From: an uncultured Rickettsiales bacterium
Lineage (GTDB): Bacteria; Myxococcota_A; UBA796; UBA9615; CAYRNR01
Assembly (NCBI GenBank): GCA_964504165.1
Contig: CAZDDH010000012.1
Coordinates: 3,213-67,212 of the forward strand
Direction: 5' to 3'
Length of the DNA: 64,000 bases
In this document: one piece after another, positions 9,835 to 63,612 of the stretch
How positions within the stretch are numbered: the stretch's first letter is position 1
How the letters are laid out: every line of letters begins with the position of its first letter
The notes under the pieces: generated by a model
What the model saw: the letters and a program-made list of their open reading frames with translations, nothing else
Database searches by the model: none
What the model was told of the DNA's origin: nothing
Position numbers and translations under genes: made by a program

Positions 9835-10702
9835 TCGAGGGGGCGGGCTGCTGGTAGATGATACAGGTCAGATCGTCGTTCCCCCCCGCGATGAGTGCCT
9901 CCCACAGCAGGGCGTCGCAGGTGAGGGTTGCGTTGTCGCCCGCCTGTAGGCGGTGGTCGAGCTGTTCGTGATCCAGCGGGGCCCACAGGCCATCGCTGCA
10001 TAGCATCAGTCGATCCCCGCCCATCAGCTCCAGCCGGTCGACGTCCACGAACGTCTTCCGGGCCGACCCCACGGCCTGCAGGAGGACATTGGCGTACTTG
10101 CGGCGCCGGACATCGTCCAGGGACTGCTCGCCGGCCCCCGCCAGCATACTGAGGTAGGTATGGTCCCGGGTCAGCTGGGTCAGCTCCCCGGCGCGCAGCA
10201 GGTAACAACGGCTGTCGCCGACGTTGGCGACCCAGGCCCTCTTGCCGCCGAGGATCAGCACGGCGCAGACGGTCGTGCCCATCTTGCAGTAGTGGTGGCG
10301 GGCCCGGGCGGCGATGGTGTGGTCGGCCTTGAGGATGGCCCCGCGGAACAGCGCCTCGACCTGGTCGTCGTCGCCGGCGTCTGTGCACTTCAAACCCTCG
10401 GAGAGGGAGCAGCTGATTTGCTCGATGGCCATGGAGCTGGCGACCTCGCCGTGTTCCATCCCCCCCAGCCCGTCCGCCACGGCCAGCAAGACGGCATCGT
10501 GGCCCAGGTGTTCGATGGTGAAGTTGTCCTGATTGCGCGTCCGCATGGTGCCCCGACAGGTGCGGCCGCACGTATCGGTGGTGGTCACCCCGGGCTCGTC
10601 GAGGCGGAGCCACAGGGTCTGGCGATGCGTGTCCGGATCCACGAAGGGAAGGATCCCGGGCAGGGGTTCGAACGGGGTCGGTTTGGCAGCGCTACGGGGC
10701 AC
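9812..10702 (-). CDS. PP2C-family Ser/Thr protein phosphatase
   Basis: RNQDNF, LLAVADGLGGMEHGEVAS, GTTVCAVL, ANVGDSRCYL, LMLCSDGLW. The 3' end overlaps the convergent CDS 8056..9834 by 23 nt. Confidence 0.85.
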   Translation of the reverse strand: MPRSAAKPTPFEPLPGILPFVDPDTHRQTLWLRLDEPGVTTTDTCGRTCRGTMRTRNQDNFTIEHLGHDAVLLAVADGLGGMEHGEVASSMAIEQISCSLSEGLKCTDAGDDDQVEALFRGAILKADHTIAARARHHYCKMGTTVCAVLILGGKRAWVANVGDSRCYLLRAGELTQLTRDHTYLSMLAGAGEQSLDDVRRRKYANVLLQAVGSARKTFVDVDRLELMGGDRLMLCSDGLWAPLDHEQLDHRLQAGDNATLTCDALLWEALIAGGNDDLTCIIYQQPAPSISTPKRG

Positions 10703-14422: not shown

Positions 14423-17068
14423 TTGGTCGCGGGCCCGTGGGCCCGTCTTTCGGGGAGGTGTGTCGTGGATCAAGCCTCGGTACGCAATGGCATGCTCGTG
14501 ATCGGGATCATCGTCTGTCTGATGGCCCTGTTTCTGTGGACGACCAGGCGGCAGCCGCCCGCGCTGGAACCCGTGGAGTCCAGTGGCCCACCGGTGGAGG
14601 TCGAGGAACCTGACCAGGGTGCCGAGGTGCCCCCGGCGGACAGAGCCATCCACGCCCCGCCCTGCATGCAGTCGGTCACCGTACCGCCGGATGATCTGGA
14701 GACGGGGGAGCCCCAGGAGAGGTACTTCGAGAACATCGGTGAGGAGACCTGCTCCAACCTGGTGGCTGCCGCCTTGAGATCGGTACCTACCGGGGAACAA
14801 AAAACCCTGTCGCCCTACTTCTTCGTGCCCACCGGTGGGGGCGTGGAGGATCTGCCCCTCAAGAGCACCCGCGCTGATGTGCAGATCGCCGGCGTGATGG
14901 CCGACGTCACCGTGACCCAGGAATACCGCAACGAAGGGGAGGGGGCCATCGAGGCGGTGTACCTGTTCCCGGCATCGACGCGAGCGGCGGTGCACGCGCT
15001 GAAGATGACCATCGGCACACGGGTGGTCGAGGCCCAGATCCGGGAGCGGGAGCAGGCCAAGCAGGAGTACGAAAAGGCGGTGGCCAAGGGCAAGACGGCG
15101 TCGCTGCTCACCCAGCAACGGCCCAACGTGTTCCAGATGGTGGTGGGCAACATCCTGCCCGGCGACGAGATCCGTGTGGAGCTGACCTACGCCGAGCTGC
15201 TGGTCCCCACCGACCGCCAGTACGAGTTCGTCTATCCCACCGTGGTGGGGCCACGTTACTCCAACATCTCCGTCGAGGAAGCCTCCGAGGAGGACCAGTG
15301 GGTGGCCGCGCCCTACATGCACGAAGCCGTGGAGCCCACCTATACCTTTGGCCTGGACGCGACCCTGAACAGCGGTGTGGCCATCGCCAAGGTCGACTGC
15401 CCTAGCCACGAGGTGGCGGTGAACTTCGAAGGCCCGCGCACGGCGCAGGTGCACCTGGCCGAGGGCAAGGGGGAGGGTAATCGGGATTTCGTGCTGCGCT
15501 ACCGGCTGGCCGGTGACCGTATCCAGAGCGGGCTGATGCTCTACCCCGGCGAGAAGGAGAACTTCTTCTTGTTGATGATGGAGCCCCCCGAACGGGTGAC
15601 CGAGGCGCAGATCGTGCCCCGGGAGTACCTGTTCATCGTGGACGTCAGCGGGTCGATGGGTGGGTTCCCGCTGGATGTCAGCAAGGAGCTGATGGGGGAT
15701 CTGCTGGGCAGCCTGCGCCCGGAGGACCACTTCAACGTGCTGCTGTTTGCCGGGGGCAGCGCCCTGCTGGCGGACCGGTCCATGCCTGCGACGCCCGGCA
15801 ACATCGCCACGGCGATGACGCTGGTGGACCAGCAACGCGGGGGTGGCGGCACCGAGTTGTTGCCGGCCCTGCAGCGGGCGCTGGCGCTGCCCACCACCGA
15901 CGGCATGTCCCGCATCGTGGTGGTGGCCACGGACGGCTACGTGACCGTGGAAGATGAGGCCTACGAGCTGGTGCGGCAGATGCCGGGCAAGGCCAACCTG
16001 TTCTCCTTCGGGATCGGCTCGGCGGTGAACCGGCACCTGGTGGAGATGCTGGCGCGGGCCGGGCAGGGCGAGCCGGTTGTGGTGCTGGACCAGGAGGAGG
16101 CGGCGGACAAGGCGGCGTCCTTCCGCAAGCAGATCTCGTCACCGTTGCTGCAAGGTATCGACGTGCAGTTCGACGGCTTCGATGCGTACGACGTGCAGTC
16201 CAGCCGCTGGCCGGACCTGTTTGCCGACCGGCCGCTGGTGATGTTCGGCAAGTACAAGGGCGCGGCCACGGGCAATGTGGTGATCACGGGCAAGGTCCCG
16301 GGGGCGGACTACCGCAAGGTGATCCCCGCTCACCGCGGCGTGGCTTCGGACAAGAACCAGGCGCTGCAGTACCTGTGGGCTCGGGATCGCATCCACCAGC
16401 TGGACGAGGTGCGGGACCACGAGCGCTACCCGGACCGGGCGGCGGAGATCACCCGCATCGGGCTGGATTACGGCCTGCTCACCGAATACACGTCCTTCAT
16501 CGCCGTGGACAAGGTGAAGCGGATCGTCGCGGATCCCCGCCGGGTGAAGCAGCCTCTGCCCATGCCGCAGGGGGTCCCCGATTCGGCCGTCGGCGGTGTC
16601 TGCCGTGCGGCGGGATCGAGCGGCCGAGGAAGCGGCGGATTCGGTCAGGGCCTGGGGAGCCTGGGAACCAAGGGTCGCGGCCGGGGCGCCAGCGGCTACG
16701 GCTCGGGCGGCGGCTACTTTGGCAAGAAGAGTTCGGGCACGCCGGGCATGGTGACGGGGGACGCCATCATCCTGGGTGCCCTGAGCCGTGACGACATCGA
16801 CCGGGTCGTCAAGGCGCACCTGGCCCAGATCCGTTACTGCTATCAAAAGGAGCTGCAGAAGAACCCGGAGCTGGCGGGCAAGGTGGTGATCAAGTTCGTC
16901 ATCGCCCCCGACGGCAGCGTATCTTCCGCCAAGGTCCAGAGCACGACGCTGAACAACGTCATCGTCGAGAACTGTATCTGCCAGCGGTTCCTGAGGTTCA
17001 CGTTCGACGAGACGAAGGGGGGCGGGATCGTGATCGTGACCTACCCGTTCGTGTTCAACTCCGTCTAA
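14423..17068 (+). CDS. Membrane-anchored VIT plus von Willebrand A protein with an AgmX/PglI (TonB_C-like) C-terminal domain
   Basis: TM helix MLVIGIIVCLMALFLW. VIT block (LKSTRADVQIAGVMADVTVTQEYRN...). vWA MIDAS motif FIVDVSGSMGG. Gly-rich linker, then RDDIDRVVKAHLAQIRYCYQKEL...VTYPFVFN. Start uncertain (TTG 14423 or ATG 14492). Confidence 0.75.
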   Translation: MVAGPWARLSGRCVVDQASVRNGMLVIGIIVCLMALFLWTTRRQPPALEPVESSGPPVEVEEPDQGAEVPPADRAIHAPPCMQSVTVPPDDLETGEPQERYFENIGEETCSNLVAAALRSVPTGEQKTLSPYFFVPTGGGVEDLPLKSTRADVQIAGVMADVTVTQEYRNEGEGAIEAVYLFPASTRAAVHALKMTIGTRVVEAQIREREQAKQEYEKAVAKGKTASLLTQQRPNVFQMVVGNILPGDEIRVELTYAELLVPTDRQYEFVYPTVVGPRYSNISVEEASEEDQWVAAPYMHEAVEPTYTFGLDATLNSGVAIAKVDCPSHEVAVNFEGPRTAQVHLAEGKGEGNRDFVLRYRLAGDRIQSGLMLYPGEKENFFLLMMEPPERVTEAQIVPREYLFIVDVSGSMGGFPLDVSKELMGDLLGSLRPEDHFNVLLFAGGSALLADRSMPATPGNIATAMTLVDQQRGGGGTELLPALQRALALPTTDGMSRIVVVATDGYVTVEDEAYELVRQMPGKANLFSFGIGSAVNRHLVEMLARAGQGEPVVVLDQEEAADKAASFRKQISSPLLQGIDVQFDGFDAYDVQSSRWPDLFADRPLVMFGKYKGAATGNVVITGKVPGADYRKVIPAHRGVASDKNQALQYLWARDRIHQLDEVRDHERYPDRAAEITRIGLDYGLLTEYTSFIAVDKVKRIVADPRRVKQPLPMPQGVPDSAVGGVCRAAGSSGRGSGGFGQGLGSLGTKGRGRGASGYGSGGGYFGKKSSGTPGMVTGDAIILGALSRDDIDRVVKAHLAQIRYCYQKELQKNPELAGKVVIKFVIAPDGSVSSAKVQSTTLNNVIVENCICQRFLRFTFDETKGGGIVIVTYPFVFNSV

Positions 17069-34670: not shown

Positions 34671-35123
34671 TCAGACAGACATCTCACCCGCCACATCGCC
34701 GACCCCGGCCACCCTCTGGAGTTCCTGGCTTTGCTGTTCCAGGAGCGTGAAGAGGGTGTCGCGGACCTGGATCTCGGTAAACGGCGACACCATGAAGGCA
34801 TGGGCTCCCCGGCGGACGGAACCCAGCACCATCAGACGGGTCGGATGGCCCGATACGCAAGTCACCTTGACCGGGTGCTCCAGTAGCTGGATCTGGCGCA
34901 ACAGTCGCCAGGCGTTTTTCGGGCCGTCGAGCCCGAGCACCAGCAGCCGGATCGGCTGGAATCGGATCAAGGCCAGCGTCTCCTCGAAGCTGTGCGCCTG
35001 CAGAACCCTCAGGCCCGTGATCTTGAGCGCCTCGGTGACCTCCGCCGCCCGCATACCCGCGAACGTGCCGGCGACGGCCACGAAGTGCTCACCGTTGTCG
35101 TTTGGGAGGGTAGGCGGTCCCAA
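34671..35123 (-). CDS. Stand-alone degenerate receiver (pseudo-REC) domain protein
   Basis: REC-like topology (HFVAVAG..., LLVLGLDGP, KVTCVSGH, GAHAFMVSPF), but the acidic pair and conserved Lys are missing. Start uncertain (TTG 35123, or ATG 35054; the track gives 35192). Confidence 0.45.
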   Translation of the reverse strand: MGPPTLPNDNGEHFVAVAGTFAGMRAAEVTEALKITGLRVLQAHSFEETLALIRFQPIRLLVLGLDGPKNAWRLLRQIQLLEHPVKVTCVSGHPTRLMVLGSVRRGAHAFMVSPFTEIQVRDTLFTLLEQQSQELQRVAGVGDVAGEMSV

Positions 35124-35124
35124 A

Positions 35125-36315
35125 TCAGGCCTCCTTGACGACTGGCGTCTTCGAGAGCGCCTTGCGCAGGGACCGGGCGCGCTTTCCCGCACGCCGATAG
35201 CGGGCGATCTCCAGCTCGTGAATCCGGCGGGTGATCTCCTCGCTGGATAGCGGCTCGGGTTGGTGTTGCTCGGCGACCTCGATGAACCGATCCTTCAGCT
35301 CCTCGAAGGCCTCGAAGACGCAGGGGTCGAACTGGGTTCCCACCCCCTCGGTGATGATGGCCGTCGCCTTCTCGTGACTGAAGGGCTCTTTGTACGGCCT
35401 ACGAGACGTCAGCGCGTCGTACACGTCGGCTAGCGCCACGATGCGGGCCGACAGGGGGATCTCGTCCTTGACCAGGCCAAAGGGATAGCCGTTGCCATCC
35501 CAGCGTTCATGATGGCAGTAGGCGATGTCGCGGCCCATCTGAAGGAACGACCGGTAGTGCAAGCGTCGTTCGATCTCACGCAGCGTGTCGCCGCCCACGG
35601 AGGAATGGGTCTTCATGGTCTCCCACTCCTCGGCGTTCAGCTTGCCGGGCTTGAGCAAGATACTGTCTGGCACGCCGACCTTACCGATGTCGTGGAGCGG
35701 CGCCGAACGCCAGATGTCGATGACATAGTTGTCGTCGATGTACCCCGCGAAGACGGGATTGGACCGGAGCTTGAACGCAAGCAGGCGGGAATACTCGGCC
35801 ATACGTTCCAGGTGCAAGCCCGTGTCCTGGTCGCGGGATTCCACCATCTTGGCCAAACCGAAGATCGCCACGTCCTGGGTTTCGCGGACCTGGGCGCCCG
35901 AGTTGTGGGAGACCTGGGAAAAGCGGCTCTCCAGGAATCGCGATCGCCTCAGCAGGGCGGTGCGTTCCACCCCCAAGAAGGCGGTCTGGGCCAGGCTCAG
36001 ATCCTGCTGCACCAGGCCCTGTTGGAGAGGTTCGTGGTGCGGGCTGTCCGGGGTTGGTGTGCCACCGGCGAGGATGACCGTGAGTTCTTGATCGGCTGTG
36101 GCGAGAGTGCTCCGGACGCGCTCCAGTTCGTCGGCCGTGAGGCCCCACGCAATGATGCTATCCACCGGTGGCTCGGTCTGGACGATGACCCGGTATAGGC
36201 CTCGGTCTAGACCCACGACGGTCACGTGGAATCCCGCGTCCTCGAGTTCCGCTCTGGCCCCGTCCGCGGCGGTGTTTGCCGACCGGACAAGGGCAACGTG
36301 ATGCAACGCATCCAT
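35125..36315 (-). CDS. HD-GYP domain c-di-GMP phosphodiesterase with a non-canonical receiver-like N-terminal domain
   Basis: HDIGKVGVPDSILLKPGKL, HHERWDGNGYPFGL, ADVYDALTSRRPYK. ATG at 36315 preceded by AAGGAAGGA (the track start 36363 is less likely). Confidence 0.85.
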   Translation of the reverse strand: MDALHHVALVRSANTAADGARAELEDAGFHVTVVGLDRGLYRVIVQTEPPVDSIIAWGLTADELERVRSTLATADQELTVILAGGTPTPDSPHHEPLQQGLVQQDLSLAQTAFLGVERTALLRRSRFLESRFSQVSHNSGAQVRETQDVAIFGLAKMVESRDQDTGLHLERMAEYSRLLAFKLRSNPVFAGYIDDNYVIDIWRSAPLHDIGKVGVPDSILLKPGKLNAEEWETMKTHSSVGGDTLREIERRLHYRSFLQMGRDIAYCHHERWDGNGYPFGLVKDEIPLSARIVALADVYDALTSRRPYKEPFSHEKATAIITEGVGTQFDPCVFEAFEELKDRFIEVAEQHQPEPLSSEEITRRIHELEIARYRRAGKRARSLRKALSKTPVVKEA

Positions 36316-36408
36316 GCGTAGTCCTTCCTTGGACGAGCCGATGCGACTCTCCAATATTGTCATCGGATGGGTTTGTTAGAACTTGAGGACTAGGAACGTG
36401 AAGGCGAA

Positions 36409-37776
36409 CTAAGGCTGGTTGGCCACGATGAAGGCCACGGTCGAACGGTCGATGCGGCGGTTGCGGGTCGCCAGCAGGTCGTCCGGCTCACCCTCGGGGG
36501 GAAGGGCGAGCCGCGTGGGATGGAGGCCCCCCTCCTCGATGAGATAGGACCGCGTGGCTACCGCTCGCCGCCGGCATAGCTGGACGTTGTACTTGGCGCC
36601 GCCTCCCTCGTCACCGTGGCCGAGTACGACCACCGGGGTCAGCTCTGGATGGATGGACAGATAGGCTGCCACCGTCTCCAGCGCCTGCCGGGCTTCGTCG
36701 GAGAGTTCGGTTTCACCTTCGGCAAATTGGACCGGGGACGCGATGAGCAGTTCGGTGGACCCGCGGGGCACCGGGTGGGTCGAGGCCTGCTCCACGGTGA
36801 CCGGGTTGGAATAACCATGGGGAAGGACGCCCGGCTCTGCCGGCTCGCCCGTGGTCTTCAGAGTCACCTGTGGTTTGCGTATCCAGCGGTCCAGGGTCAA
36901 TCCCACCTGGAAGCCCGCGCGGAAATCGGGCGAGCCGACACCGGGCGCCAGACCACGTCCCAGGAATACCGTGGCGCGGAAGCGGTCGTGGTTGAACGCG
37001 CCGGCCACCAGGAGTTCCATCGGGCGTTCGGCCACGGATCCGCTCACCTCGCCGGACCAGGATGTGGCGGCGGTCCAGTTGCGGTGGAGGCGAACCTCGG
37101 CTCCCAGCCCGTACCGGAATGCCGAATGGCTCTGCACCCCACTCCAGTCTGCAGACGGCCTCAGGCGTCCACCCACCAGCGCCGTCACCCGTACGGGCCC
37201 TGGCCGTACCTCCATGGCGACGTCCGGGTGGAATTCCATGACCCCCGATGAGGAAAACGCGCTCTGCATCCCTGTGGGGATCTGGATGGCGGGCCGGATG
37301 GCCAGCCCGAACGGGCTCTTGCCGATCTTGAGCAGGGGGAACAATCCGCCGATCCGCAGATCACCGGGGCCCACCGCCTGGAGATCGTCGTCCGGCTGGG
37401 GCCACCATCCGGCCTGGTAGGCCACCAGGGGGAAATCCGCCCAGACGGCGAAACCCCGGCCCACGCCCATGGCGGCGCCGACTTCGGTGATCAGCCGGTC
37501 GCGAATGACCGGCATCGTGCGTACACCATCCTCCACGAGGTAGATGGGGCGGTGTTCACCCTGCATCAGCAGCGAACCGGTGATCTGGAGCGGCTCCATG
37601 CCCTTCGTCCCAGGAGCGGCGAGGATATCCCCCGCAAATGGCTGCAGCCGGAACCGCAGCGAGTCGACCGTGGTGGCTTCCAGCTCGGCTGCCCACGCGC
37701 GGGGTAGGGGGGCGAGCAGCCACGGGATCGCCAGGAGGAACACGGCCAGGCCCGGCCAACGATAGGTGTGTTTCAT
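36409..37776 (-). CDS. Outer-membrane protein with an N-terminal barrel-like domain and a C-terminal OmpA-family peptidoglycan-binding domain
   Basis: Signal peptide AVFLLAIPWLLAPLPRAWA. C-terminal domain VQFAEGETELSDEARQALETVAAYL...VVVLGHGDEGGGAKYNVQLCRRRAVATRSYL. Confidence 0.75.
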   Translation of the reverse strand: MKHTYRWPGLAVFLLAIPWLLAPLPRAWAAELEATTVDSLRFRLQPFAGDILAAPGTKGMEPLQITGSLLMQGEHRPIYLVEDGVRTMPVIRDRLITEVGAAMGVGRGFAVWADFPLVAYQAGWWPQPDDDLQAVGPGDLRIGGLFPLLKIGKSPFGLAIRPAIQIPTGMQSAFSSSGVMEFHPDVAMEVRPGPVRVTALVGGRLRPSADWSGVQSHSAFRYGLGAEVRLHRNWTAATSWSGEVSGSVAERPMELLVAGAFNHDRFRATVFLGRGLAPGVGSPDFRAGFQVGLTLDRWIRKPQVTLKTTGEPAEPGVLPHGYSNPVTVEQASTHPVPRGSTELLIASPVQFAEGETELSDEARQALETVAAYLSIHPELTPVVVLGHGDEGGGAKYNVQLCRRRAVATRSYLIEEGGLHPTRLALPPEGEPDDLLATRNRRIDRSTVAFIVANQP

Positions 37777-38696
37777 GAGCCTTCCCCCGTCCGCTCGGCG
37801 ATGGGACCGTCAGCGGGGTTCTCCTCGGGCCTGAGTTCCAGGCGAGCGCTGGCGTCCATCAACATCAAGGAGATCATGCCTGGCTCCCTCTGCTCCGAGC
37901 CAGGCCAGCTGACCGTCGCCAGGACGGTGCCTGGATCCCGGCCGAGCATCTGTTCAACAGCTTCGGCGACGGCGGCAGCCCGTCGCCGGGCGGCGGCCTC
38001 CGCGTTCTCGATACGTTCCACGTTTGCCATCACGCCGATGCCATCGGCCATCGGATGAAGGTGCTCGTTGATTGTCGTCGATACCGCCTCGGACAGGGCC
38101 TCCCCGTCCACGACGACGGAAATCCGGACGGGGCCGCGGATATCGAAACGGGAGATCCACAAGGCCAGGAGCTGCCGGCCGTCGTCACTCAGCCGGCTGC
38201 CTCCCTCGTGGAACAGCAAAATCGATTCGAACTGGCCCGTGATCGTCTCGGTGCGTAGGCCCTCCTCACCCGTCTCCACGAGGCGGTCGCCGATGCAGAC
38301 GAGATCCTGGGGTAGGCCGTCGTCGTCCAGGGCTGGGAGAGGGGTCGGCGGTCCAGAGACCAGCCGAGCGGTGGCCCACTGTGTGCCCAGGCCCACTACC
38401 TGTAGTCGTCCGGACTCCATCCACACCGGGTGGCTACGGAATTCGGCATCGCCTCGCCGGGCAGGAACGCGCCGGTACGCGACGAGGATGGTGCCCGGCT
38501 CCACCGCTTCTAGACCGCCGATGTCCAGGTGATAGTGGCGTGTGGTGGGGTTCGAATCGCCCGCGGGGTAGTCCCGCCCATCGCTGCCCTGTTCTTCGAC
38601 GGTATAGGAGCCCACCACATGCGGCTCGGCACCCGCCAACCCGCAGGTTGCCAGCGTGATCCAAACGACGGCCGCCCATCCAGCTAGATTCCTCAT
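37773..38696 (-). CDS. Exported (possibly lipo-) protein with a beta-rich N-domain and an eroded OmpA-like C-domain
   Basis: ATG at 38696 (MRNLAGWAAVVWITLATCGLAGA). C-terminal half ILLFHEGGSRLSDDGRQLL...ISVVVDGEA...AEAAARRRAAAVAEAV resembles OmpA_C without the canonical GHTD..N core. ATGA overlaps at both ends. Confidence 0.5.
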   Translation of the reverse strand: MRNLAGWAAVVWITLATCGLAGAEPHVVGSYTVEEQGSDGRDYPAGDSNPTTRHYHLDIGGLEAVEPGTILVAYRRVPARRGDAEFRSHPVWMESGRLQVVGLGTQWATARLVSGPPTPLPALDDDGLPQDLVCIGDRLVETGEEGLRTETITGQFESILLFHEGGSRLSDDGRQLLALWISRFDIRGPVRISVVVDGEALSEAVSTTINEHLHPMADGIGVMANVERIENAEAAARRRAAAVAEAVEQMLGRDPGTVLATVSWPGSEQREPGMISLMLMDASARLELRPEENPADGPIAERTGEGS

Positions 38697-39265
38697 CGGA
38701 CCATCACCTCCACACCTCCGTGGAGCTGCCAGCCACCCAGATCCATTCCCCTGCCGGATGCCCAGCGAGCCCAGCGGTGGCCGCCCTCCACGACGAGATA
38801 CACCCCTTCGAGACCGGGCCCGGTATGGATCGAATAGGACGTCTCGGGGGTCAACAACAGCGCCGCACCCATGCCCACCATGGCGCCGGGTTTCATGCCG
38901 TTGATGACGTCGGTTTCGACCTGTTCGCGGTACCAGGTGACCATCGGGCCCCCGACGATATAGGGCACCAGTGGCTGATGTTGGACCATCTCCAGGCGCC
39001 CCTCGAATCGGATCCCCACGTTGCCCATGTGCAGCCGCGTTTCCAGATCCGTAGTCTCCATCGTCTCCGTCAACACGGCCGTGCCCCGGCGGCCGCCATA
39101 ACTGAACTGCATTCCCACGCCGAGCTGAGGAAAAGGCCGCATCACGAAGCCGGCCTGGATGTTCACCGCGGCGGCCTTCTGGTAGACCACGAGCACTTCG
39201 GGGCTGCGTACCCCGGCGGCACCGACGGTGAACCAGATGGCCATCGCCAGGACGCTGGCGCTCAC
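38693..39265 (-). CDS. Small exported beta-barrel-like protein (hypothetical, about 8 strands)
   Basis: GTG start overlapping the PilZ stop (GTGA). Signal-like MSASVLAMAIWFTVGAAG. Alternating-hydrophobic strands rich in Gly/aromatics. Confidence 0.45.
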   Translation of the reverse strand: MSASVLAMAIWFTVGAAGVRSPEVLVVYQKAAAVNIQAGFVMRPFPQLGVGMQFSYGGRRGTAVLTETMETTDLETRLHMGNVGIRFEGRLEMVQHQPLVPYIVGGPMVTWYREQVETDVINGMKPGAMVGMGAALLLTPETSYSIHTGPGLEGVYLVVEGGHRWARWASGRGMDLGGWQLHGGVEVMVR

Positions 39266-39810
39266 TTGTCTTCCCCGCGCAGAGCCTTACGATGGCTCTT
39301 GAACACCAGATCCACGATCTGTCGCCGGGTGTCCTCTTCCAGGTCGACGAACTCGAATCCCAGGTACGTCTGACCCTCGACATCCTGAGCACGGACCAGG
39401 TTGGCATCCACGACCAGTGGGACATGCCCCGGATCATCGTCGCGTAGGATCAACATCGGGACCTGTTCGCCGACGTCACACGGTGGCTCCCCCCGGAACC
39501 CGATCCCGCTCTCGGACAGATTGATGCTCTGCTCTTCGGCTCGCGCGACTTCGTTGGCCAGCGTGAGGCATTGGAGTACCGCAGCCATGTATTCGATGGT
39601 GTTGTCGATGATGCCCGCCGTGACCGCGTCGGCGCCGGGTTTGATGGACCGCAGGCGCCCCACCAAGGTGGCCTGCTGCCTGCGTAGGGCGAGCAACTGC
39701 TCGTCCACGAGGCCGTCCAGCTCACCGAATTCGAGCTTGGCCTTCGTCACTCGCTGGCGGAAGTGCCGCCGCCGTTCGTCATCACCCTTGTTTGCGGTGT
39801 CGTCTGTCAT
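39262..39810 (-). CDS. PilZ-domain protein (putative c-di-GMP receptor)
   Basis: RxxxR motif (RRHFR), N-x-S-x-x-G motif (NLSESG) and terminal barrel strands (YLGFEFVDLEEDTRRQIVDLV). ATG at 39810 preceded by GGAGGAG. Confidence 0.65.
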   Translation of the reverse strand: MTDDTANKGDDERRRHFRQRVTKAKLEFGELDGLVDEQLLALRRQQATLVGRLRSIKPGADAVTAGIIDNTIEYMAAVLQCLTLANEVARAEEQSINLSESGIGFRGEPPCDVGEQVPMLILRDDDPGHVPLVVDANLVRAQDVEGQTYLGFEFVDLEEDTRRQIVDLVFKSHRKALRGEDK

Positions 39811-39849: not shown

Positions 39850-39923
39850 GGTGCTGTGCACGGTATTTTGCGGAAAAGGAAGGGAGGTGGGACCGTCTGA
39901 CCGTCAGCTCGTTGACGCCCTCG

Positions 39924-40295
39924 TCAGAGCTTCTGCTGGAGTCGCTGGGCACGGTGATGGGGCTCAAGACCTCCAAATGCTTTGAAGGCTCGATTGCACT
40001 GGCGCAGGGACTGGATCTTCTCGTCCAGATCTTCGAGGTGCCGGTGGGCCTCGACGCGGAACATGTCCGCGGCCTCGATCCAGGCGGCGAAGGCGGCTTG
40101 CTCTTCCGGTGTGGGCTCGCCGGTGCGTGCTTCCACGGCCGCCTGGATGGCGCGCTGGCTCATGTGGAGCTCGGGAGCCAGATTCTCGAAGGCGCTGTCC
40201 CCGTCCTCGGCCATGCTTTGGCAAAACCGGCGGAGTTTTTCTGCCGTGGCGCGGAGCTGCTCGGTCAGGACCCTATCAGGGGCTGGCAATGGCAC
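39924..40295 (-). CDS. Small helical protein in the FliT position (possible flagellar export chaperone)
   Basis: 123 aa, helical and charged. Overlaps the fliS 3' end by 20 nt. The assignment rests on position only. Confidence 0.3.
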   Translation of the reverse strand: MPLPAPDRVLTEQLRATAEKLRRFCQSMAEDGDSAFENLAPELHMSQRAIQAAVEARTGEPTPEEQAAFAAWIEAADMFRVEAHRHLEDLDEKIQSLRQCNRAFKAFGGLEPHHRAQRLQQKL

Positions 40296-42572: not shown

Positions 42573-43400
42573 TTAGCCAAGCAGCGAAAGTGCCGCCTGT
42601 GGCGCGAAGTTGGCCTGAGCAAGTACGGAAATACCCGCTTGCGTCAGGATCTGGTTTCTTGTCAAGTGCGCGGATTCGCTTGCGAAGTCCACGTCCCGGA
42701 CCTGGCTTTCGGCTGCCGTGAGGTTCTCCGCGGTCACCTCGAGGTTGCCGAAGGCATGGTAGAGCCGGTTCTGCGTCGCACCGAGGGTGGCGCGGGAATC
42801 ACTGATCGTCTCGATGGCCGAGTCGATCAGGGCCAGCGACGTGTTGGCGTCGGCGACCGTGTCCACCGATGCGGAACCGGTGTCCACACCCAGCGCCGCC
42901 GAGTCGGTGTCGACCATGGTGATGTCGATGGTGTCACCTGAGTCGAAGCCCACCTGCACGGACATACCACCCGAGAAGGTGCCGTCCAGCAGGATGTTCC
43001 CGTTGAACTCGGTGTCCGAAGCGAGGCGGTCGATTTCTGACTGCAGCTCGGCAAACTCTGTCTGGAGGTAACCACGCTCGGTGCCGCCCAGAACCTCGTT
43101 GGCGCTGGTCATTGACAGCTCGCGCATACGATTGAGGATGGAGTGGACCTCGCCGAGAGCACCCTCAGCGGTGCTCACCACGCTGACGCCGTCGTTGACG
43201 TTGCGCATGGCGACTCCGGCAGACGTGATGTCTGCGCGCAGGTTCTCACTCACACCCAAACCGGCGGCGTCGTCGGCGGCGCGGGTGATGCGCAGACCGG
43301 ATGACAACCGGTTGTAGTTCTGTGACAGCGCTGAACTTGAACGGCCCAAGTTCTTTTGCGCCATCAAGGCTGACACGTTGTTGTTGATGCGAAGAGCCAT
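42573..43400 (-). CDS. fliC: Flagellin (short, 275 aa, D0/D1 only)
   Basis: MALRINNNVSALMAQKNL...LSSGLRITRAADDAAGL and C-terminal ILTQAGISVLAQANFAPQAALSLLG. Confidence 0.95.
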   Translation of the reverse strand: MALRINNNVSALMAQKNLGRSSSALSQNYNRLSSGLRITRAADDAAGLGVSENLRADITSAGVAMRNVNDGVSVVSTAEGALGEVHSILNRMRELSMTSANEVLGGTERGYLQTEFAELQSEIDRLASDTEFNGNILLDGTFSGGMSVQVGFDSGDTIDITMVDTDSAALGVDTGSASVDTVADANTSLALIDSAIETISDSRATLGATQNRLYHAFGNLEVTAENLTAAESQVRDVDFASESAHLTRNQILTQAGISVLAQANFAPQAALSLLG

Positions 43401-43449: not shown

Positions 43450-43476
43450 TTATCGGTCAGGAACGCCACAGCTTTA
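43450..43476 (-). promoter_or_regulatory. Sigma-28 (FliA) promoter of fliC
   Basis: Minus strand reads TAAAGCTG-N11-ACCGATAA against consensus TAAAGTTT-N11-GCCGATAA. The -10 element ends 50 nt before the fliC ATG. Confidence 0.65.
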
Positions 43477-51595: not shown

Positions 51596-52398
51596 CGTTT
51601 CGCCTTTCGTTTCTTGCCCGCCGGGCGGTTGGCCAGCTCGGGCGTCATATGGGCCCGCAAGCGCATGCAGGCCTCCGTGTGGATCTGGGAGATGCGCGAT
51701 TCCGTCACGCCGAGCACGCCGCCGATCTCCTTGAGCGTGAGGTTCTTGAGGTAGTACAGGGCCACGACCGTCTTTTGCCGTTTGGTCAGGTGGTTCTCGA
51801 TGGCATCCTTCATGGCGGCCAGCGCCTGGCGTAGCGCGACGCTCTCCTCCACGGTGGCGGCAGAGGGATCGCTGAGCAGGTCGCTGAGGGAACGGGATTG
51901 CTGATTGGCGCGGCCCTCGAACGAGATGAGCATCACGGAGCGGCAGTCGTTGACCGTGCGCCAGTACTCCTCGAGGCTGATCTCCATCGCGTCCGCGACC
52001 TCGTGGGCCTCGGGCGGCCGCCCCAGTTTTTGCTCCAGGACGGAGACCGCGGACTGCACGCGGTTGGCGGTCGCGCGTGCCTGACGGGAGATGGGGTCGA
52101 CCCGGCGGAGCACGTCCAGCATCGCCCCCCGGATGCGGAAGTCGGCGAAGGTCGAGAACTGGACGTCCCGTTCCGGGTCGTAGCGGTTCATCGCGTCGAG
52201 CAGCCCCAGGGCGCCCGAGTTGAACAGGTCGTCCAGCTCCACGGCGGCGTCCCGGGGGAGCCGCGCCATCAGCCGGCGGGCCATGGCAGAAATCCGGGGA
52301 GTGAACTCCGCCACCAGCTCGTCACGATTCTTGCCGTCGATGAGCGTCTGGTCCTGGTAACCACGGGCCCCTGGTGGTTGCTGGGAGTAGCAGTTCAC
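51592..52398 (-). CDS. fliA: Flagellar sigma factor FliA (sigma-28)
   Basis: GTG at 52398 overlaps the flhF stop (GTGA). Region 2 FSTFADFRIRGAMLDVLRR. Region 4.2 LTLKEIGGVLGVTESRISQIHTEA. Confidence 0.85.
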   Translation of the reverse strand: MNCYSQQPPGARGYQDQTLIDGKNRDELVAEFTPRISAMARRLMARLPRDAAVELDDLFNSGALGLLDAMNRYDPERDVQFSTFADFRIRGAMLDVLRRVDPISRQARATANRVQSAVSVLEQKLGRPPEAHEVADAMEISLEEYWRTVNDCRSVMLISFEGRANQQSRSLSDLLSDPSAATVEESVALRQALAAMKDAIENHLTKRQKTVVALYYLKNLTLKEIGGVLGVTESRISQIHTEACMRLRAHMTPELANRPAGKKRKAKR

Positions 52399-53414
52399 GG
52401 TGCGTCCCCCCCGGTGCTCCCGTCGTCCGGGCCGTCCACTGCCGTGACGTGATTTTCCATCCGGTTCACGACCGAATCCCAGCGCGCCAGTTCCAGCTGG
52501 GGATCGTCTTCCTCGTTGAACTTGCCAACGAATCCAAAGGGGCCGTTGGAAGCCAGTGCCAGGGACAGCAGGGCTCCCATGTGGTCGACCCCATCGACGA
52601 ACGTCATGATCCATCCCAGGCTCTCGAACTCGGCCACGGCATTGACCATCGCGATGCCTTCGGTCAGCTCATCCGCGGTGACGACTGGAACCAGAGACAT
52701 GGAGTCGAATGCATTGAGCCAGGGAATGGTGAGCAGGCCAGCACGGGACGGGCCCATGGCTGGCATGTCGATGACGATCAGATGGAGCGATTCGTCCTGC
52801 GCGATCAGTTTTGCGGCCCGCTCCGGGGCTCCCTCTTGCAGGGACTTGACGCCTTCTATCTCCATTTCCGGGCGAGGGCCGGTGGACAGCAGGGCCACCT
52901 TGCCGGGCAGCAGCTCGGCTGCCATCCGGCACAACTCGACGGCGACCGTGGTGCGGCCCGTGCGATGGGCGCCCGCCAGCCCCAGCACGTACTTGTTCGA
53001 TAGATCCAGCGCCAGGGAGCAGGGCGTGTCTCGCTCCAGGACGGCGCGGATGCGGTCCCAGGGGGGGGTATCCAGCGACGGGTCACCCATCCACGCCTCT
53101 CGGCACAGGATCGTGGCCTGATCTTGCCGCGTGTTCATGGACACCAGCTCTTGCCACAGTTTCCGGTACCGGGCCGGCAGGGCGCCCATCCCTGCGGCGT
53201 TGCCGGCATCGCTGGGGCCGTTTTGTAAAAACTCAATCAGGGTCGGGATGCCCATCCGCTCCGCCTGGGCGACGGCGATCTCGACCCCTGGTTTGTCACT
53301 GCCCTTGCCCACGGAGACGATAGCGGTGTCATTCCCGAGTGCCTTGCGCGCCCGTCGGGAGGCGTCTGCCACCGTCCTGCCCCTGAAACGGAATGTCTTC
53401 CTACGATCGTTCAT
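52395..53414 (-). CDS. flhF: FlhF-like protein with degenerate SRP-GTPase motifs
   Basis: FlhF-type N-terminus (FRFRGRTVADASRRARKALGNDTAIVSV) and the position between flhA and fliA. The G-motif equivalents read GAHRTGRTT, VIDMPAMG and TFVDG. Confidence 0.5.
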   Translation of the reverse strand: MNDRRKTFRFRGRTVADASRRARKALGNDTAIVSVGKGSDKPGVEIAVAQAERMGIPTLIEFLQNGPSDAGNAAGMGALPARYRKLWQELVSMNTRQDQATILCREAWMGDPSLDTPPWDRIRAVLERDTPCSLALDLSNKYVLGLAGAHRTGRTTVAVELCRMAAELLPGKVALLSTGPRPEMEIEGVKSLQEGAPERAAKLIAQDESLHLIVIDMPAMGPSRAGLLTIPWLNAFDSMSLVPVVTADELTEGIAMVNAVAEFESLGWIMTFVDGVDHMGALLSLALASNGPFGFVGKFNEEDDPQLELARWDSVVNRMENHVTAVDGPDDGSTGGDAP

Positions 53415-55512: not shown

Positions 55513-55526
55513 TCCCTGACGCTGTG

Positions 55527-56636
55527 TCAGGCGCTTGACGCTCTGTCGTTCTCCGACTCCATGCCTCTAAGGCCTCGTATCCTGTGGACAAAGCTGAGAA
55601 CTTCGGCCACAGGTCCGAAGGTCTCATCGGGGATCGGTTGTCCCACTTCACACAGTTGATACAAGGTCCGTGCCAGGGTTCGGTTTTCGAGCTGGGGAAT
55701 CGAATGACGGCGCGCTTCTGCCCGGATCCGTAGTGCGATCTGATCGGCTCCCATGGCCATCACGATGGGGACGTCGGTCTCGCCGTGGATGTACTTGAGG
55801 GCCACGGCGATGTGGGTGGGGTTGTTGATGACCACATCTGCGTCGGCGACATTGCCGATCATGCGGTTGGCGGACAGCTGGTGGGCGATCCGTTTTCTTC
55901 GTGAGCGCAGGTGGGGATCACCTTCCTGATCCTTGAGGTCCCGTTTGAGTTCGTCGCGGGTCATCCGCATCTTCTTGTTGATGCGGTAGACCTGGATGCC
56001 GTAATCCAACGCGGCGGTCGCCATCAGCGCCACGGTGGCCGCGGCACACAGGCGGACGATGGCGTTGCCGAGGGTGCGCATCCCGCTGTGCAGGTCGGCC
56101 CGGTCGAGGGCCATGACCCGGAACGCGTCGGTCCGGAACACGATGTAGCAGGCGATGCCGATGGCCACCAGCTTGAGGATGGATTTGAGGAGCTCCTGGA
56201 GTGAGTCGGGGCTGGCCAGCTTCTTGAGGCCCTGGAGCGGGTTCAGCTTTTCGAACTTGGGCTGGAGCACCTTGAAGGTCAGGTTGCCCTTGGTCTGGAC
56301 AATCCCGACCAGCAGGGAGGCGAGCCACATCACGATGAACGCCGGCGCCATGGCTATCAGGGCGTGATTGAGCAGGTCCGGGGCCCAGGTCAGCACCGAT
56401 TCGACGGCCGCGGTGGGTTCGACCATCATGGCAAAAGGAGCCTTGAAGGACTGTGCGACGGCCGTCGCCGCTGCGCCGCCACCGATCGCGATGATGGGAA
56501 CGGTCACCATCATGCCCACGGTAGAGATCAGGTCCCGGGAGACGGGAACCTGCCCGTCGTCCCGGAACTGCTTGCGACGTTGGTCGGTCGGCTCCTCCGT
56601 GCGTTCTTGGTTGTCCTGGTCTCCTCCTTCCGGCAT
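55527..56636 (-). CDS. flhB: Flagellar export switch protein FlhB
   Basis: EEPTDQRRKQFRDDGQVPVSRD and the NPTH autocleavage site (VVINNPTHIAVAL). Confidence 0.95.
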   Translation of the reverse strand: MPEGGDQDNQERTEEPTDQRRKQFRDDGQVPVSRDLISTVGMMVTVPIIAIGGGAAATAVAQSFKAPFAMMVEPTAAVESVLTWAPDLLNHALIAMAPAFIVMWLASLLVGIVQTKGNLTFKVLQPKFEKLNPLQGLKKLASPDSLQELLKSILKLVAIGIACYIVFRTDAFRVMALDRADLHSGMRTLGNAIVRLCAAATVALMATAALDYGIQVYRINKKMRMTRDELKRDLKDQEGDPHLRSRRKRIAHQLSANRMIGNVADADVVINNPTHIAVALKYIHGETDVPIVMAMGADQIALRIRAEARRHSIPQLENRTLARTLYQLCEVGQPIPDETFGPVAEVLSFVHRIRGLRGMESENDRASSA

Positions 56637-62428: not shown

Positions 62429-62444
62429 AGCAATGATTGTGCCA
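62429..62444 (-). promoter_or_regulatory. Sigma-54 (-24/-12) promoter in front of motA
   Basis: Minus strand reads TGGCAC-AATCA-TTGCT, which matches the TGGCAC-N5-TTGCW core at every fixed position. The -12 element lies 28 nt upstream of the motA GTG. Confidence 0.65.
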
Positions 62445-62543
62445 GGTGGCGCGAGAGGACGGTAAATGGCGGCGAGGCCTTGTGGCGGCCGGTATTCGTG
62501 GGATCGGGAGGCAGTAACAAACGCCGAGGATGAACGCCGAATC

Positions 62544-62581
62544 CGTCAGCGCCCTGTCTTGCCGTCAATCGTTTGACGTCA
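62544..62581 (-). promoter_or_regulatory. Candidate enhancer (UAS) of overlapping palindromes with three TGACG half-sites
   Basis: Minus strand reads TGACGTCA overlapping CGTCAA-ACGA-TTGACG, with another TGACG about 20 nt further on. Lies about 100-135 nt upstream of the sigma-54 promoter. Confidence 0.25.
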
Positions 62582-62613: not shown

Positions 62614-63456
62614 TCACGCCTCGGCCTCCCCATAGCGGGCTGGCGATGCCACCAGCACCTCGCGGATGGCGGCGCTGTTCCCACCGCTCAGGTCATGCTG
62701 GTTGATGCCGGTCTGCACGGCCACCTCGGCCAGGTGGACGGTCCGGGCGACAGGGCCGAGCTGCTGGTCCCCACGGCACTGGATGCCGATGGATTCTTCG
62801 AGTTCGGGTGCCAGCAACCAGCCACGGGCCAGATCCTGCCCCAGTGCGGTCGCCCGGGGGTGGTCCAGCAGCGGTTCGACGCCGGTGGTCACGAGCCCCG
62901 AGTAGACCGCGGGGAGCTTGCACATCTGCACCATCGCGTGCAGCAGCAGGGCGCGCCCCACGTCGTGTAGCAGGCCCGCGGTGAACGCCTGGTCTTGTGG
63001 GATCCCTTTGCGCTTGGCCAGGCGACGTGACCTGCTGGCCACGGCCAGGCTGTGGGCCGCCAGCCGCTCGGCGCTCTCGCTGAGCAAGGCCGGTACCGGC
63101 GTTATGGCCGTGGCGGTGGCCTGTAGCACGGTCCGGCACCGGTCGGGCCCCAGCACCTCGATCGCCTCGTTGAGGCAGCTGACGGGACCGTTGCCCGTGT
63201 GCCGGCGAAGGGAGTTGGCAGCCGCCAACGTCTGCCCGGCGAGCATGGGATCGGAGCGGATCGCGCCCCGCACCAGGTGATCGCCGGTCATCATCTCGGC
63301 CGGTGACGTCATGGAGTTGGCCAGCGACGGGCACAGCGGCGGTAGGAAACCAAACGCTGCCTTGCGGGCGTACTGCTCGATGAGTGATTGGGTAAGGTCA
63401 GCCAGCGGTGGTGATCCGCTGGTCGTGTTGGGTTCGGGCGGCCGGTGTTCGGTCAT
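62614..63456 (-). CDS. HDOD-domain signalling protein
   Basis: DPMLAGQTLAAANSL...AIEVLGPDR...AHSLAVASRSRRLAKRKG...AGLLHDVGRALLLH. Start uncertain: the track ORF begins at 63612, and I prefer the ATG at 63456 because a sigma-28-like promoter lies inside the extension. Confidence 0.7.
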   Translation of the reverse strand: MTEHRPPEPNTTSGSPPLADLTQSLIEQYARKAAFGFLPPLCPSLANSMTSPAEMMTGDHLVRGAIRSDPMLAGQTLAAANSLRRHTGNGPVSCLNEAIEVLGPDRCRTVLQATATAITPVPALLSESAERLAAHSLAVASRSRRLAKRKGIPQDQAFTAGLLHDVGRALLLHAMVQMCKLPAVYSGLVTTGVEPLLDHPRATALGQDLARGWLLAPELEESIGIQCRGDQQLGPVARTVHLAEVAVQTGINQHDLSGGNSAAIREVLVASPARYGEAEA

Positions 63457-63543
63457 GGAATTCCCGGAGGTCCCCTTCATGGGATCTGGGCAAACCGCTC
63501 TTGCAGCCTGCGGTCCTCCGTCGCCTGACTTTGGACTGCGTGT

Positions 63544-63570
63544 GATATCGGTTACTACAGCCATTCCTTT
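63544..63570 (-). promoter_or_regulatory. Sigma-28-type promoter candidate for the HDOD gene
   Basis: Minus strand reads TAAAGGAA-N11-ACCGATAT, with spacing identical to the fliC promoter. Confidence 0.4.
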
Positions 63571-63612
63571 AGCCTTTTTCTTATTGCAGCTTCTTTTTTG
63601 CCGGGTCCCCAT

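Follow-up and report, generated by a model that had tools for sequence, protein, structure and literature searches.

What do a receptor for cyclic di-guanosine monophosphate (c-di-GMP) and three cell-envelope proteins do at the 3' end of a flagellar gene cluster? The locus that raises this question lies in a 64-kb stretch of contig CAZDDH010000012.1 from an uncultured bacterium (the window), where six open reading frames (ORFs) encode, in order, a PilZ protein, a small outer membrane (OM) beta-barrel (bb190), an exported protein (p307), a protein combining a beta-barrel with an OmpA domain (OmpA455), an HD-GYP phosphodiesterase and a degenerate receiver. A preliminary description of this DNA had read the six genes as a module for a c-di-GMP-gated attachment to the flagellar motor. 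The conserved core is smaller: it consists of PilZ, barrel and p307, following fliS and a gene of 123 amino acids (aa), orf123. Overall, the locus may represent a lineage-specific addition to the flagellar genes of uncultured, Myxococcota-like bacteria, a reading for which and against which the balance appears about even. The genes concerned are as follows.

39924..40295, minus strand: orf123, a helical protein of 123 aa encoded between fliS and PilZ, to which Pfam and NCBIfam scans assigned no family
39262..39810, minus strand: PilZ, a soluble protein of 182 aa (Pfam PF07238)
38693..39265, minus strand: bb190, 190 aa, a candidate small OM beta-barrel, with a GTG start overlapping the PilZ stop
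37773..38696, minus strand: p307, an exported protein of 307 aa with a signal peptide at 1-24 (ending AGA, followed by EP), an N-domain at ~25-147 and a C-domain at ~148-285
36409..37776, minus strand: OmpA455, 455 aa, with a signal peptide, a TraB-like OM barrel (38-249) and an OmpA_C peptidoglycan-binding domain (351-433)
35125..36315, minus strand: HD-GYP phosphodiesterase, 396 aa from the ATG at 36315, with an RpfG-like layout
34671..35123, minus strand: stand-alone degenerate receiver-like protein, 150 aa from a TTG at 35123, with an AAGGAGG ribosome-binding site, 1 nt after the HD-GYP stop

Gene order and its conservation

The relatives of this locus form two groups. Counting distinct loci with enough flanking sequence, the close group comprises eight (the window, L023, L001, L004/L007, L005, L008, L009 and L010) and the sister group seven (L011, L012, L013, L014, L017, L018 and L019). 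The order fliD-fliS-orf123-PilZ-barrel-p307 was found in 15 of the 15, with no exceptions, and the two groups have homologous versions of PilZ, barrel, p307 and OmpA. The arrangement is not a product of chance, because it is present in every related locus recovered. The p307 family itself is small. A word-indexed search returned seven close homologues, a profile search run exhaustively over 1.84 billion representatives gave 14 and located the family nowhere else, and a search seeded from the sister group yielded 24 proteins; the family founded by p307 is rare, unannotated and comprises about 40 sequences. Identity to p307 is 42-76% in the close group and 25-33% in the sister group, whose proteins (350-420 aa) are homologous over their full length and carry an insertion of ~50 aa in the OmpA-like half. 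The proposed linkage to flagellar genes was borne out by this neighbourhood comparison, since homologues of the second and third ORFs were found only beside fliS.

Re-reading of the sequence confirmed the six ORFs at the coordinates first given, together with their start-stop overlaps (GTGA at 39262-39265, ATGA at 38693-38696 and ATGA at 37773-37776), and 4-nt overlaps of the identical kind occur in L007-L010. The module had been placed directly downstream of fliS. It does follow the flagellar genes on the same strand, but orf123 intervenes between fliS and PilZ, and it does so in every locus of both groups (alignment A7). This position suggests that orf123 encodes a FliT-like chaperone or a partner of PilZ.

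Gene content beyond p307 is variable. In the close group, the OmpA455 start overlaps the p307 stop by 4 nt, and HD-GYP follows OmpA455 in the window, L001, L004/L007, L005, L006, L009 and L023, yet is missing from L008 and L010. The receiver occurs only in the window and its nearest relative. In the sister group, p307 is followed by a convergent GGDEF gene, a Cys-rich MYXO-CTERM TraA-like protein, the OmpA455 homologue, a second PilZ protein (TIGR02266) and a LysM gene adjoining dprA, which we take to be the typical position of tsaP. A TraB-like anchor always lies ~3 kb or nearer to the core, and so does a c-di-GMP enzyme, yet none is adjacent in L008 and L010. The picture of a fixed six-gene module was therefore abandoned. 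The further idea that a receptor and a degrading enzyme bracket the envelope proteins does not describe a conserved design, because the content downstream varies between HD-GYP, GGDEF and neither.

The sister-group genes form an arrangement of their own. Across L011-L020 (e.g., L013 12501-15460), a conserved three-gene operon encodes a Cys-rich MopE-motif MYXO-CTERM protein, a TraB-like barrel-plus-OmpA protein and a TIGR02266 PilZ protein; it is located two genes beyond the flagellar cluster, past the convergent GGDEF gene. It may constitute a c-di-GMP-linked TraAB-like surface system.

Promoters and the flagellar regulon

Are the module genes also controlled like flagellar genes? Promoter calls in this analysis are consensus matches only, and the following elements carry the comparison.

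39903..39916, minus strand: palindrome GTCA-N6-TGAC (GTCAACGAGCTGAC, within CTGACGAGGGCGTCAACGAGCTGACGG), overlapping the orf123 stop codon
39834..39849, minus strand: sigma54-type -24/-12 element TGGTCCGTTTCCTGCA, 24 nt before the PilZ ATG
62429..62577, minus strand: region upstream of motA, with a palindrome GTCAAACGATTGAC (62564-62577) and a near-perfect sigma54 promoter TGGCACAATCATTGCT (62444-62429)
36360..36386, minus strand: sigma28-type promoter TCAAG-N15-CCGATGA upstream of HD-GYP

A GG-N10-GC element was found at the same place before PilZ in 17/17 loci of both groups, the sister-group versions being near-consensus (e.g., TGGCACGCTTGCTGCT in L013). In 9/9 close-group loci, 65-67 nt separate the palindrome from the sigma54-like element downstream of it, and three copies of GTCA-N6-TGAC are present in the window against 0.7 expected. 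In half-sites and spacing alike, the palindrome agrees with the Pseudomonas FleQ box GTCaNTAAAtTGAC, a string present in passages of PMC6120874 and PMC8125075, and it is regarded here as a candidate site for an enhancer-binding protein. The region upstream of motA has the same architecture apart from the distance between palindrome and promoter, which is 133 nt at motA and 67 nt at PilZ. A sigma28 promoter was sought upstream of PilZ and not found.

The gene for the phosphodiesterase shows a different signal. A sigma28-type element precedes HD-GYP in 8/8 loci (the window, L001, L004, L005, L006, L007, L009 and L023), taking the form TCAAG/TAAAG-N15-(A/C)CGATA(A/C) in the loci other than the window. 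Sigma28-type promoters were likewise found at fliC (TAAAGCTGTGGCGTTCCTGACCGATA at 43476) and at the HDOD gene (TAAAGGAATGGCTGTAGTAACCGATA at 63571). In the sister group, sigma54-type elements precede flgN-flgK and sigma28-like elements precede fliS. On these motifs, the PilZ operon appears to share its mode of control with the stator operon, and HD-GYP to be regulated in the same way as the late flagellin class. Sharing of the sigma54-type promoter and the palindrome with motA, and of the sigma28-type promoter with fliC, ties the module to the flagellar regulon, to which, given motif matches and linkage together, it probably belongs.

Other regulatory signals were few. Rfam scans of the window and of this region gave no family, and hence no c-di-GMP riboswitch; a simple scan detected no sigma70-type promoter, and both terminator-like sites that it returned are on the plus strand, opposite to the module. 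Sigma28-like elements at the sister-group GGDEF and MopE-like genes occurred in 2/10 loci only, and no claim is made for them. In the two loci that do not have HD-GYP, a sigma28-like TCAAG-N15-CCGATA still follows the OmpA gene (L008 12234, L010 7380), and the ORFs tested downstream of it contain no recognisable domain. The HDOD-domain protein (62614-63612; the called gene, L024 8946-9788, gives 280 aa) is encoded between flgE and motA and represents a second signalling-type gene in the late flagellar class. The third palindrome of the window, GTCAGGCGCTTGAC on the plus strand (55526-55539), lies at the flhB stop, 14 nt before flhA, and is followed by no sigma54-like element. A further sigma54-like element, CGGCACTTTCGCTGCT (42580-42595), lies within fliC at its 3' end, with flaG beginning ~90 nt further downstream, and may be an internal promoter for flaG-fliD-fliS.

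The PilZ protein

The profile searches for PilZ, OmpA and HD-GYP domains all returned matches above cut-off, and the protein assignments first given to the ORFs hold. PilZ matched PF07238 at 44.7 bits (cut-off 22.5; E 1.8e-11) over residues 83-170, and this was the sole Pfam match at E<=1. Both binding motifs are present, RxxxR as R14-R18 and NxSxxG as N97-G102. In 10 PilZ homologues spanning both groups, R14, R18, S99 and G102 are invariant and position 97 is N or D. A scan for hydrophobic or membrane segments was negative, and no N-terminal YcgR/PilZN domain was found, the N-terminal stretch consisting of 13 residues and the binding motif. PilZ is predicted from these features to be a soluble, cytoplasmic binder of c-di-GMP. 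The preliminary description had envisaged periplasmic and OM parts gated by c-di-GMP. Direct gating of such parts by PilZ is rejected, because a soluble cytoplasmic protein with no membrane segment has no physical route to them.

An insertion of ~65 aa separates the RxxxR/beta1 segment from NxSxxG, i.e., it falls between beta1 and beta2. Alignment with XCC6012 suggests that the insertion forms two helices, as in the topology of tetrameric PilZ proteins. In the profile search of the PDB, the best sequence match was the Bacillus subtilis clutch MotI/YpfA (5vx6, E 0.004), and similarity to XCC6012 (3ph1) was marginal (E 0.16). Aligned as a family by hhalign, however, PilZ matched XCC6012 residues 71-187 with a probability of 75% (E 2.6e-5), a range that covers the tetramerisation helix (alpha3), the barrel and the C-terminal helix. 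XCC6012 is a tetrameric PilZ protein with two extra helices between beta1 and beta2 (PMC3131395). FlgX is a tetrameric PilZ protein and a stator-associated motor component located under each MotA pentamer, and PA2989 is a tetrameric PilZ protein that binds c-di-GMP (PMC11725899).

The window PilZ has features of two known types and differs from each in some respects. Like YcgR, MotI (DgrA, YpfA) and FlgZ, it has intact RxxxR and (D/N)xSxxG motifs and is encoded among flagellar genes, but it differs from the YcgR family in having no N-terminal YcgR/PilZN domain and in having its PilZ domain split by the insertion. With the tetrameric family (XCC6012, PA2989 and Campylobacter FlgX) it shares an insertion at the same beta1-beta2 site as in XCC6012; unlike FlgX and XCC6012, which do not have the c-di-GMP motifs, it retains them.

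The envelope proteins

OmpA455 is the best defined of the three envelope proteins. Its C-terminal region matched PF00691 at 50.7 bits (cut-off 27.2; E 2.3e-13; residues 351-433), the pocket motif GHGD...YNxxLxxRRA is intact, and 10 homologues all have D389, N397, L400, R403, R404 and A405. Residues 38-249 matched positions 21-240 of the NCBIfam TraB model (NF033763) with an E-value of 4.8e-25, at 87.5 bits against a cut-off of 700. OmpA455 is 29% identical over its full length to the sister-group OmpA proteins. It appears to be a distant paralogue of the TraB family and is a predicted peptidoglycan binder.

The small barrel bb190 contains an N-terminal hydrophobic segment and matched the NCBIfam MXAN_2562 family of OM beta-barrels at 9e-11, which is sub-threshold. 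Its sister-group homologue matched the same family at 58 bits (7.8e-16), also sub-threshold. Genes of 217-229 aa at the equivalent position in L011-L013 are homologous to bb190.

Profile searches with p307 gave no Pfam, NCBIfam or meaningful PDB sequence match, and its structure was modelled by AlphaFold2 on an alignment of 35 sequences (pLDDT 79.3; a model from seven sequences, pLDDT 58.9, was discarded) and compared by Foldseek. The C-terminal half of the model matched the OmpA-like fold, including OmpA-C 4rha (E 6.5e-4, TMt 0.54) and 4erh (TMt 0.58), where TMt is the TM-score normalised to target length. Further matches of this half were to OprF, TssL, MotB, PomB and MotS; the entries matched include 5u1h, 3khn, 3wpw, 3s06 and 9ljl. 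When p307 was aligned with the OmpA455 family by hhalign, the RRA helix alone aligned (E 0.0025, probability 12%). No conserved residue corresponds to the aspartate of the GHxD loop, and the peptidoglycan pocket is degenerate. The C-domain of p307 is, in the model, a degenerate OmpA-like fold, and its earlier characterisation as an eroded OmpA-like half was fair. The N-terminal half of the model matched the beta-barrel of F1-ATPase alpha/beta subunits and, less well, FlgT (3w1e, E 0.018, 120 columns) and a chain of the type IVa pilus (T4aP) machine model 3jc8 (E 0.016, 94 columns; chain identity unchecked). The N-domain is accordingly modelled as a beta-barrel that weakly resembles FlgT and F1.

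Comparison with flagellar families was largely negative. p307 gave no match to the MotY family, and OmpA455 matched it only weakly, via its OmpA domain (0.016, 14.9 bits against the NCBIfam cut-off of 400). For none of the three proteins did a flagellar family model in Pfam or NCBIfam (MotY, FlgT, FlgP or FlgO) reach its cut-off.

Which known envelope systems do the three proteins resemble? With the Vibrio MotX/MotY T-ring and FlgT/FlgO/FlgP H-ring they share OM proteins, attachment to peptidoglycan and, as in MotY, a periplasmic protein whose N-terminal beta domain is joined to an OmpA-like C-domain, but they fall outside those sequence families and p307 has a degenerate peptidoglycan pocket. 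The Vibrio MotX/MotY and FlgT/FlgO/FlgP genes are also not known to be coupled to a PilZ gene. A second comparison is with TsaP, the secretin-associated protein of type IVa pili, which combines a peptidoglycan-binding domain with a FlgT-like beta domain and decorates an OM machine from the periplasm (bioRxiv 10.1101/2020.05.29.123786). p307 shares this design of a peptidoglycan-binding-type domain plus a FlgT-like beta domain, but TsaP uses LysM where p307 has an OmpA-like domain, and the match to 3jc8 is weak and its chain not confirmed as TsaP. The third comparison is with Myxococcus TraA/TraB. OmpA455 has the layout of TraB (signal peptide, OM barrel and OmpA domain), and the TraB model matched over the barrel; however, the score lies far below the TraB cut-off, and neither the window operon nor the close group has a TraA-like gene. 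TraAB is a system of gliding bacteria without flagella and is not known to be linked to c-di-GMP genes. In Myxococcus, TraB anchors the TraA adhesin to peptidoglycan (PMC12045341).

The HD-GYP protein and the sixth ORF

The HD-GYP protein matched HD_5 at 94.9 bits (cut-off 27.2; 5.8e-27) and HD at 64.1 bits (1.8e-17). Its HDIGK and HHERWDGNGYP motifs are intact and are conserved in L001, L004 and L005, where conservation of the whole catalytic half is high. The N-terminal region is receiver-like, degenerate and unrecognised by Pfam. Judged from the L023 and L005 orthologues, the start is most likely the ATG at 36315 and not that at 36363, which falls within the promoter-like element. The protein resembles RpfG-type REC-HD-GYP proteins in its intact HD and GYP motifs and N-terminal receiver-like region, and it differs from them in the degeneration of that region and in its sigma28-type promoter. 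This promoter would wire the enzyme into the late flagellar class.

The sixth ORF most likely starts at the TTG at 35123. It matched Response_reg at 18.7 bits (cut-off 30.2; 0.002), which is sub-threshold, and receiver domains in the PDB at ~2e-4 (the AdeR receiver at 2e-4). In its sequence, the acidic pair after beta1 is absent and SPF replaces KPF, so that the conserved Lys is lost. A relationship to receivers at the level of the fold is plausible. L023 alone has an orthologue (75% identical), and the remaining loci have none.

A possible mechanism and its alternatives

How might these genes act together? The sigma54 promoter and the upstream palindromic activator site would drive a translationally coupled operon, PilZ-bb190-p307-OmpA455, with a promoter layout like that of motAB-fliL, and the sigma28 (FliA-type) promoter would drive HD-GYP and, in this genus only, the degenerate receiver. 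PilZ would contact the motor from its cytoplasmic side, through MotA or the C-ring, and either brake it or stabilise the stators, for which YcgR/MotI and FlgX are the models; YcgR and MotI are a c-di-GMP-dependent brake and clutch. We lean towards the view that PilZ regulates the motor. HD-GYP, being expressed late, would lower c-di-GMP once the flagellum is complete and the filament genes are on, and the motor would then run. The trio of bb190, OmpA455 and p307 would provide a scaffold between OM and peptidoglycan near the flagellar base, following the same logic as MotX/MotY, FlgT/FlgO/FlgP or TsaP. A structural role of the trio in the motor is more tentative, and we place it somewhat below an even chance. 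More speculative again, and on balance unlikely, is the proposal that the trio forms a new periplasmic/OM ring or cage of the motor, derived from TraB-type anchors and a FlgT-like/OmpA-like protein; the co-made, c-di-GMP-binding tetrameric PilZ would dock beneath the stator units like FlgX, though reversibly.

Several points weigh against reading the locus as motor equipment. No structural evidence locates any protein of the trio at the motor, and for the p307 N-domain, which has a generic fold, Foldseek gave weak matches (E about 0.02). The type of c-di-GMP enzyme is not conserved, being HD-GYP, GGDEF or, in L008 and L010, none adjacent. Sigma54 alone is not specific to flagella, because myxobacteria use sigma54 promoters for many non-flagellar genes. 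All loci come from two related uncultured lineages, and their synteny could be partly inherited and not selected. Finally, the sister-group homologue of OmpA455 is encoded in a separate operon, behind the TraA-like MYXO-CTERM protein and ahead of the second PilZ, and this context, together with the paralogy to TraB, points to a surface or adhesion role.

The last point introduces the main rival explanation, in which the trio is an apparatus for cell-surface adhesion or OM contact and a single messenger sets swimming and attachment reciprocally. In its favour, OmpA455 shares the barrel (NCBIfam, 4.8e-25) and the architecture (PMC12045341) of TraB, its sister-group homologue is translationally coupled to the TraA-like protein and followed by the TIGR02266 PilZ, and the sister-group GGDEF occupies the place that HD-GYP has in the close group. 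In L001, moreover, a MYXO-CTERM metalloprotease-family gene follows HD-GYP, and a gene of the same size, unscanned, stands there in L004. However, no TraA-like partner accompanies OmpA455 in the group to which the window belongs, bb190 and p307 always stay with fliS-orf123-PilZ and never with a TraA-like gene, the promoter architecture of the PilZ operon is common to motAB, and the TraB score is 87.5 bits where the cut-off is 700. A switch of this kind is possible and is the foremost competitor, though we consider it unlikely.

A weaker alternative confines flagellar control to PilZ, HD-GYP and the receiver, and treats the envelope genes as general OM-to-peptidoglycan integrity proteins that share a transcript. 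OmpA-type tethers and small barrels are common housekeeping proteins of the envelope, the peptidoglycan-binding motif of OmpA455 is canonical, and the trio is unmatched by flagellar family models. Against this, the p307 family is very rare and restricted to the present context, and general tethers would not be expected to remain translationally coupled to the PilZ of a flagellar cluster across groups with 25-33% identity; the explanation appears improbable. The weakest alternative, a gene order inherited without functional meaning and persisting in two related uncultured lineages, gains something from the origin of every locus in two related groups from similar metagenomes, but it is even less probable given that the downstream genes (HD-GYP, GGDEF and others) have been reshuffled while fliS-orf123-PilZ-barrel-p307 is invariant, that non-coding promoter elements and their spacing are conserved, and that the start-stop overlaps are maintained. 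Both of these alternatives are disfavoured because of the exclusivity of p307, the conserved overlaps and the conserved non-coding elements.

Significance

Across lineages, flagellar motors differ mainly in their periplasmic and OM accessories and in their throttling by c-di-GMP, and to our knowledge almost all known examples are from a small number of cultured Proteobacteria, Campylobacterota and spirochaetes. A literature search found no description of the present module or of the p307 family, a rare unannotated family that occurs solely beside fliS. The PilZ protein, predicted to be of the tetrameric type and competent to bind c-di-GMP, is encoded in a flagellar cluster and connects the YcgR-type brakes with FlgX, a structural protein described only recently. 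OmpA455 would represent an unusual recruitment, to a flagellar context, of a TraB-family anchor otherwise known from cell-cell contact in myxobacteria. The predicted regulatory code, with sigma54 and a FleQ-box-like palindrome common to motAB and with sigma28 on the phosphodiesterase, is directly testable. If the ring or cage proposal were true, a stator scaffold and a second-messenger brake would be linked within one operon.

The organism and the surrounding genes

What kind of bacterium carries this locus? Hallmarks of Myxococcota recur in the loci, namely the MYXO-CTERM sorting signal and the TIGR02266 PilZ (both above cut-off), matches to TraB-like, MXAN_2562-like and MXAN_6640-like families, and a Pkinase-PilZ fusion in L005. 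MYXO-CTERM is described as universal in Myxococcota in a passage of PMC11980579. The name 'uncultured Rickettsiales' given to the metagenome-assembled genomes was rejected as a taxonomic guide in view of the ~65% G+C and the Myxococcota markers. The lineage is probably, from its gene content, an uncultured Myxococcota-like one with a full flagellar gene set, and complete flagellar gene sets are thereby documented in organisms with hallmarks such as MYXO-CTERM. Myxococcota are known for gliding and not swimming.

The window has a G+C content of ~65%, and its right half (~34.7 kb to the 64-kb end) is a single minus-strand flagellar supercluster. The order is the end of flgE, HDOD, motA, motB, fliL, fliM/N, fliOP, fliQ, flhB, flhA, a 339-aa gene and fliA, followed by flgF, flgG, flgA, flgH, flgI, flgJ, flgM, a 128-aa gene (in the FlgN position), flgK, flgL, fliC, flaG, fliD and fliS. 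Upstream of the window, the source contig continues the flagellar cluster with fliG-H-I-J, flgD and flgE. The six module ORFs lie on the same strand, 3' of fliS-orf123, and a convergent FabH-like gene closes the block.

The 339-aa ORF (52395-53414; also called as 339 aa on the source contig, L024 18988-20007) stands between flhA and fliA, the usual site of FlhF/FlhG, and neither it nor the 128-aa ORF matched Pfam or NCBIfam. In one sub-clade of the close group (L001 3538-5232 and L004 3447-5141, and also L007 and L009), a 564-aa glycosyltransferase (Glyco_trans_1_2) is encoded on the opposite strand between two flagellin genes, a position that suggests flagellin glycosylation; the window has no such gene. 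Surface and signalling proteins in the style of myxobacteria are encoded in the left half of the window, comprising a MopE-motif/PMP-repeat/NosD-like protein (7969-9834), a VIT-VWA protein (14423-17068) and a PP2C phosphatase adjoining a histidine kinase (9812-10702).

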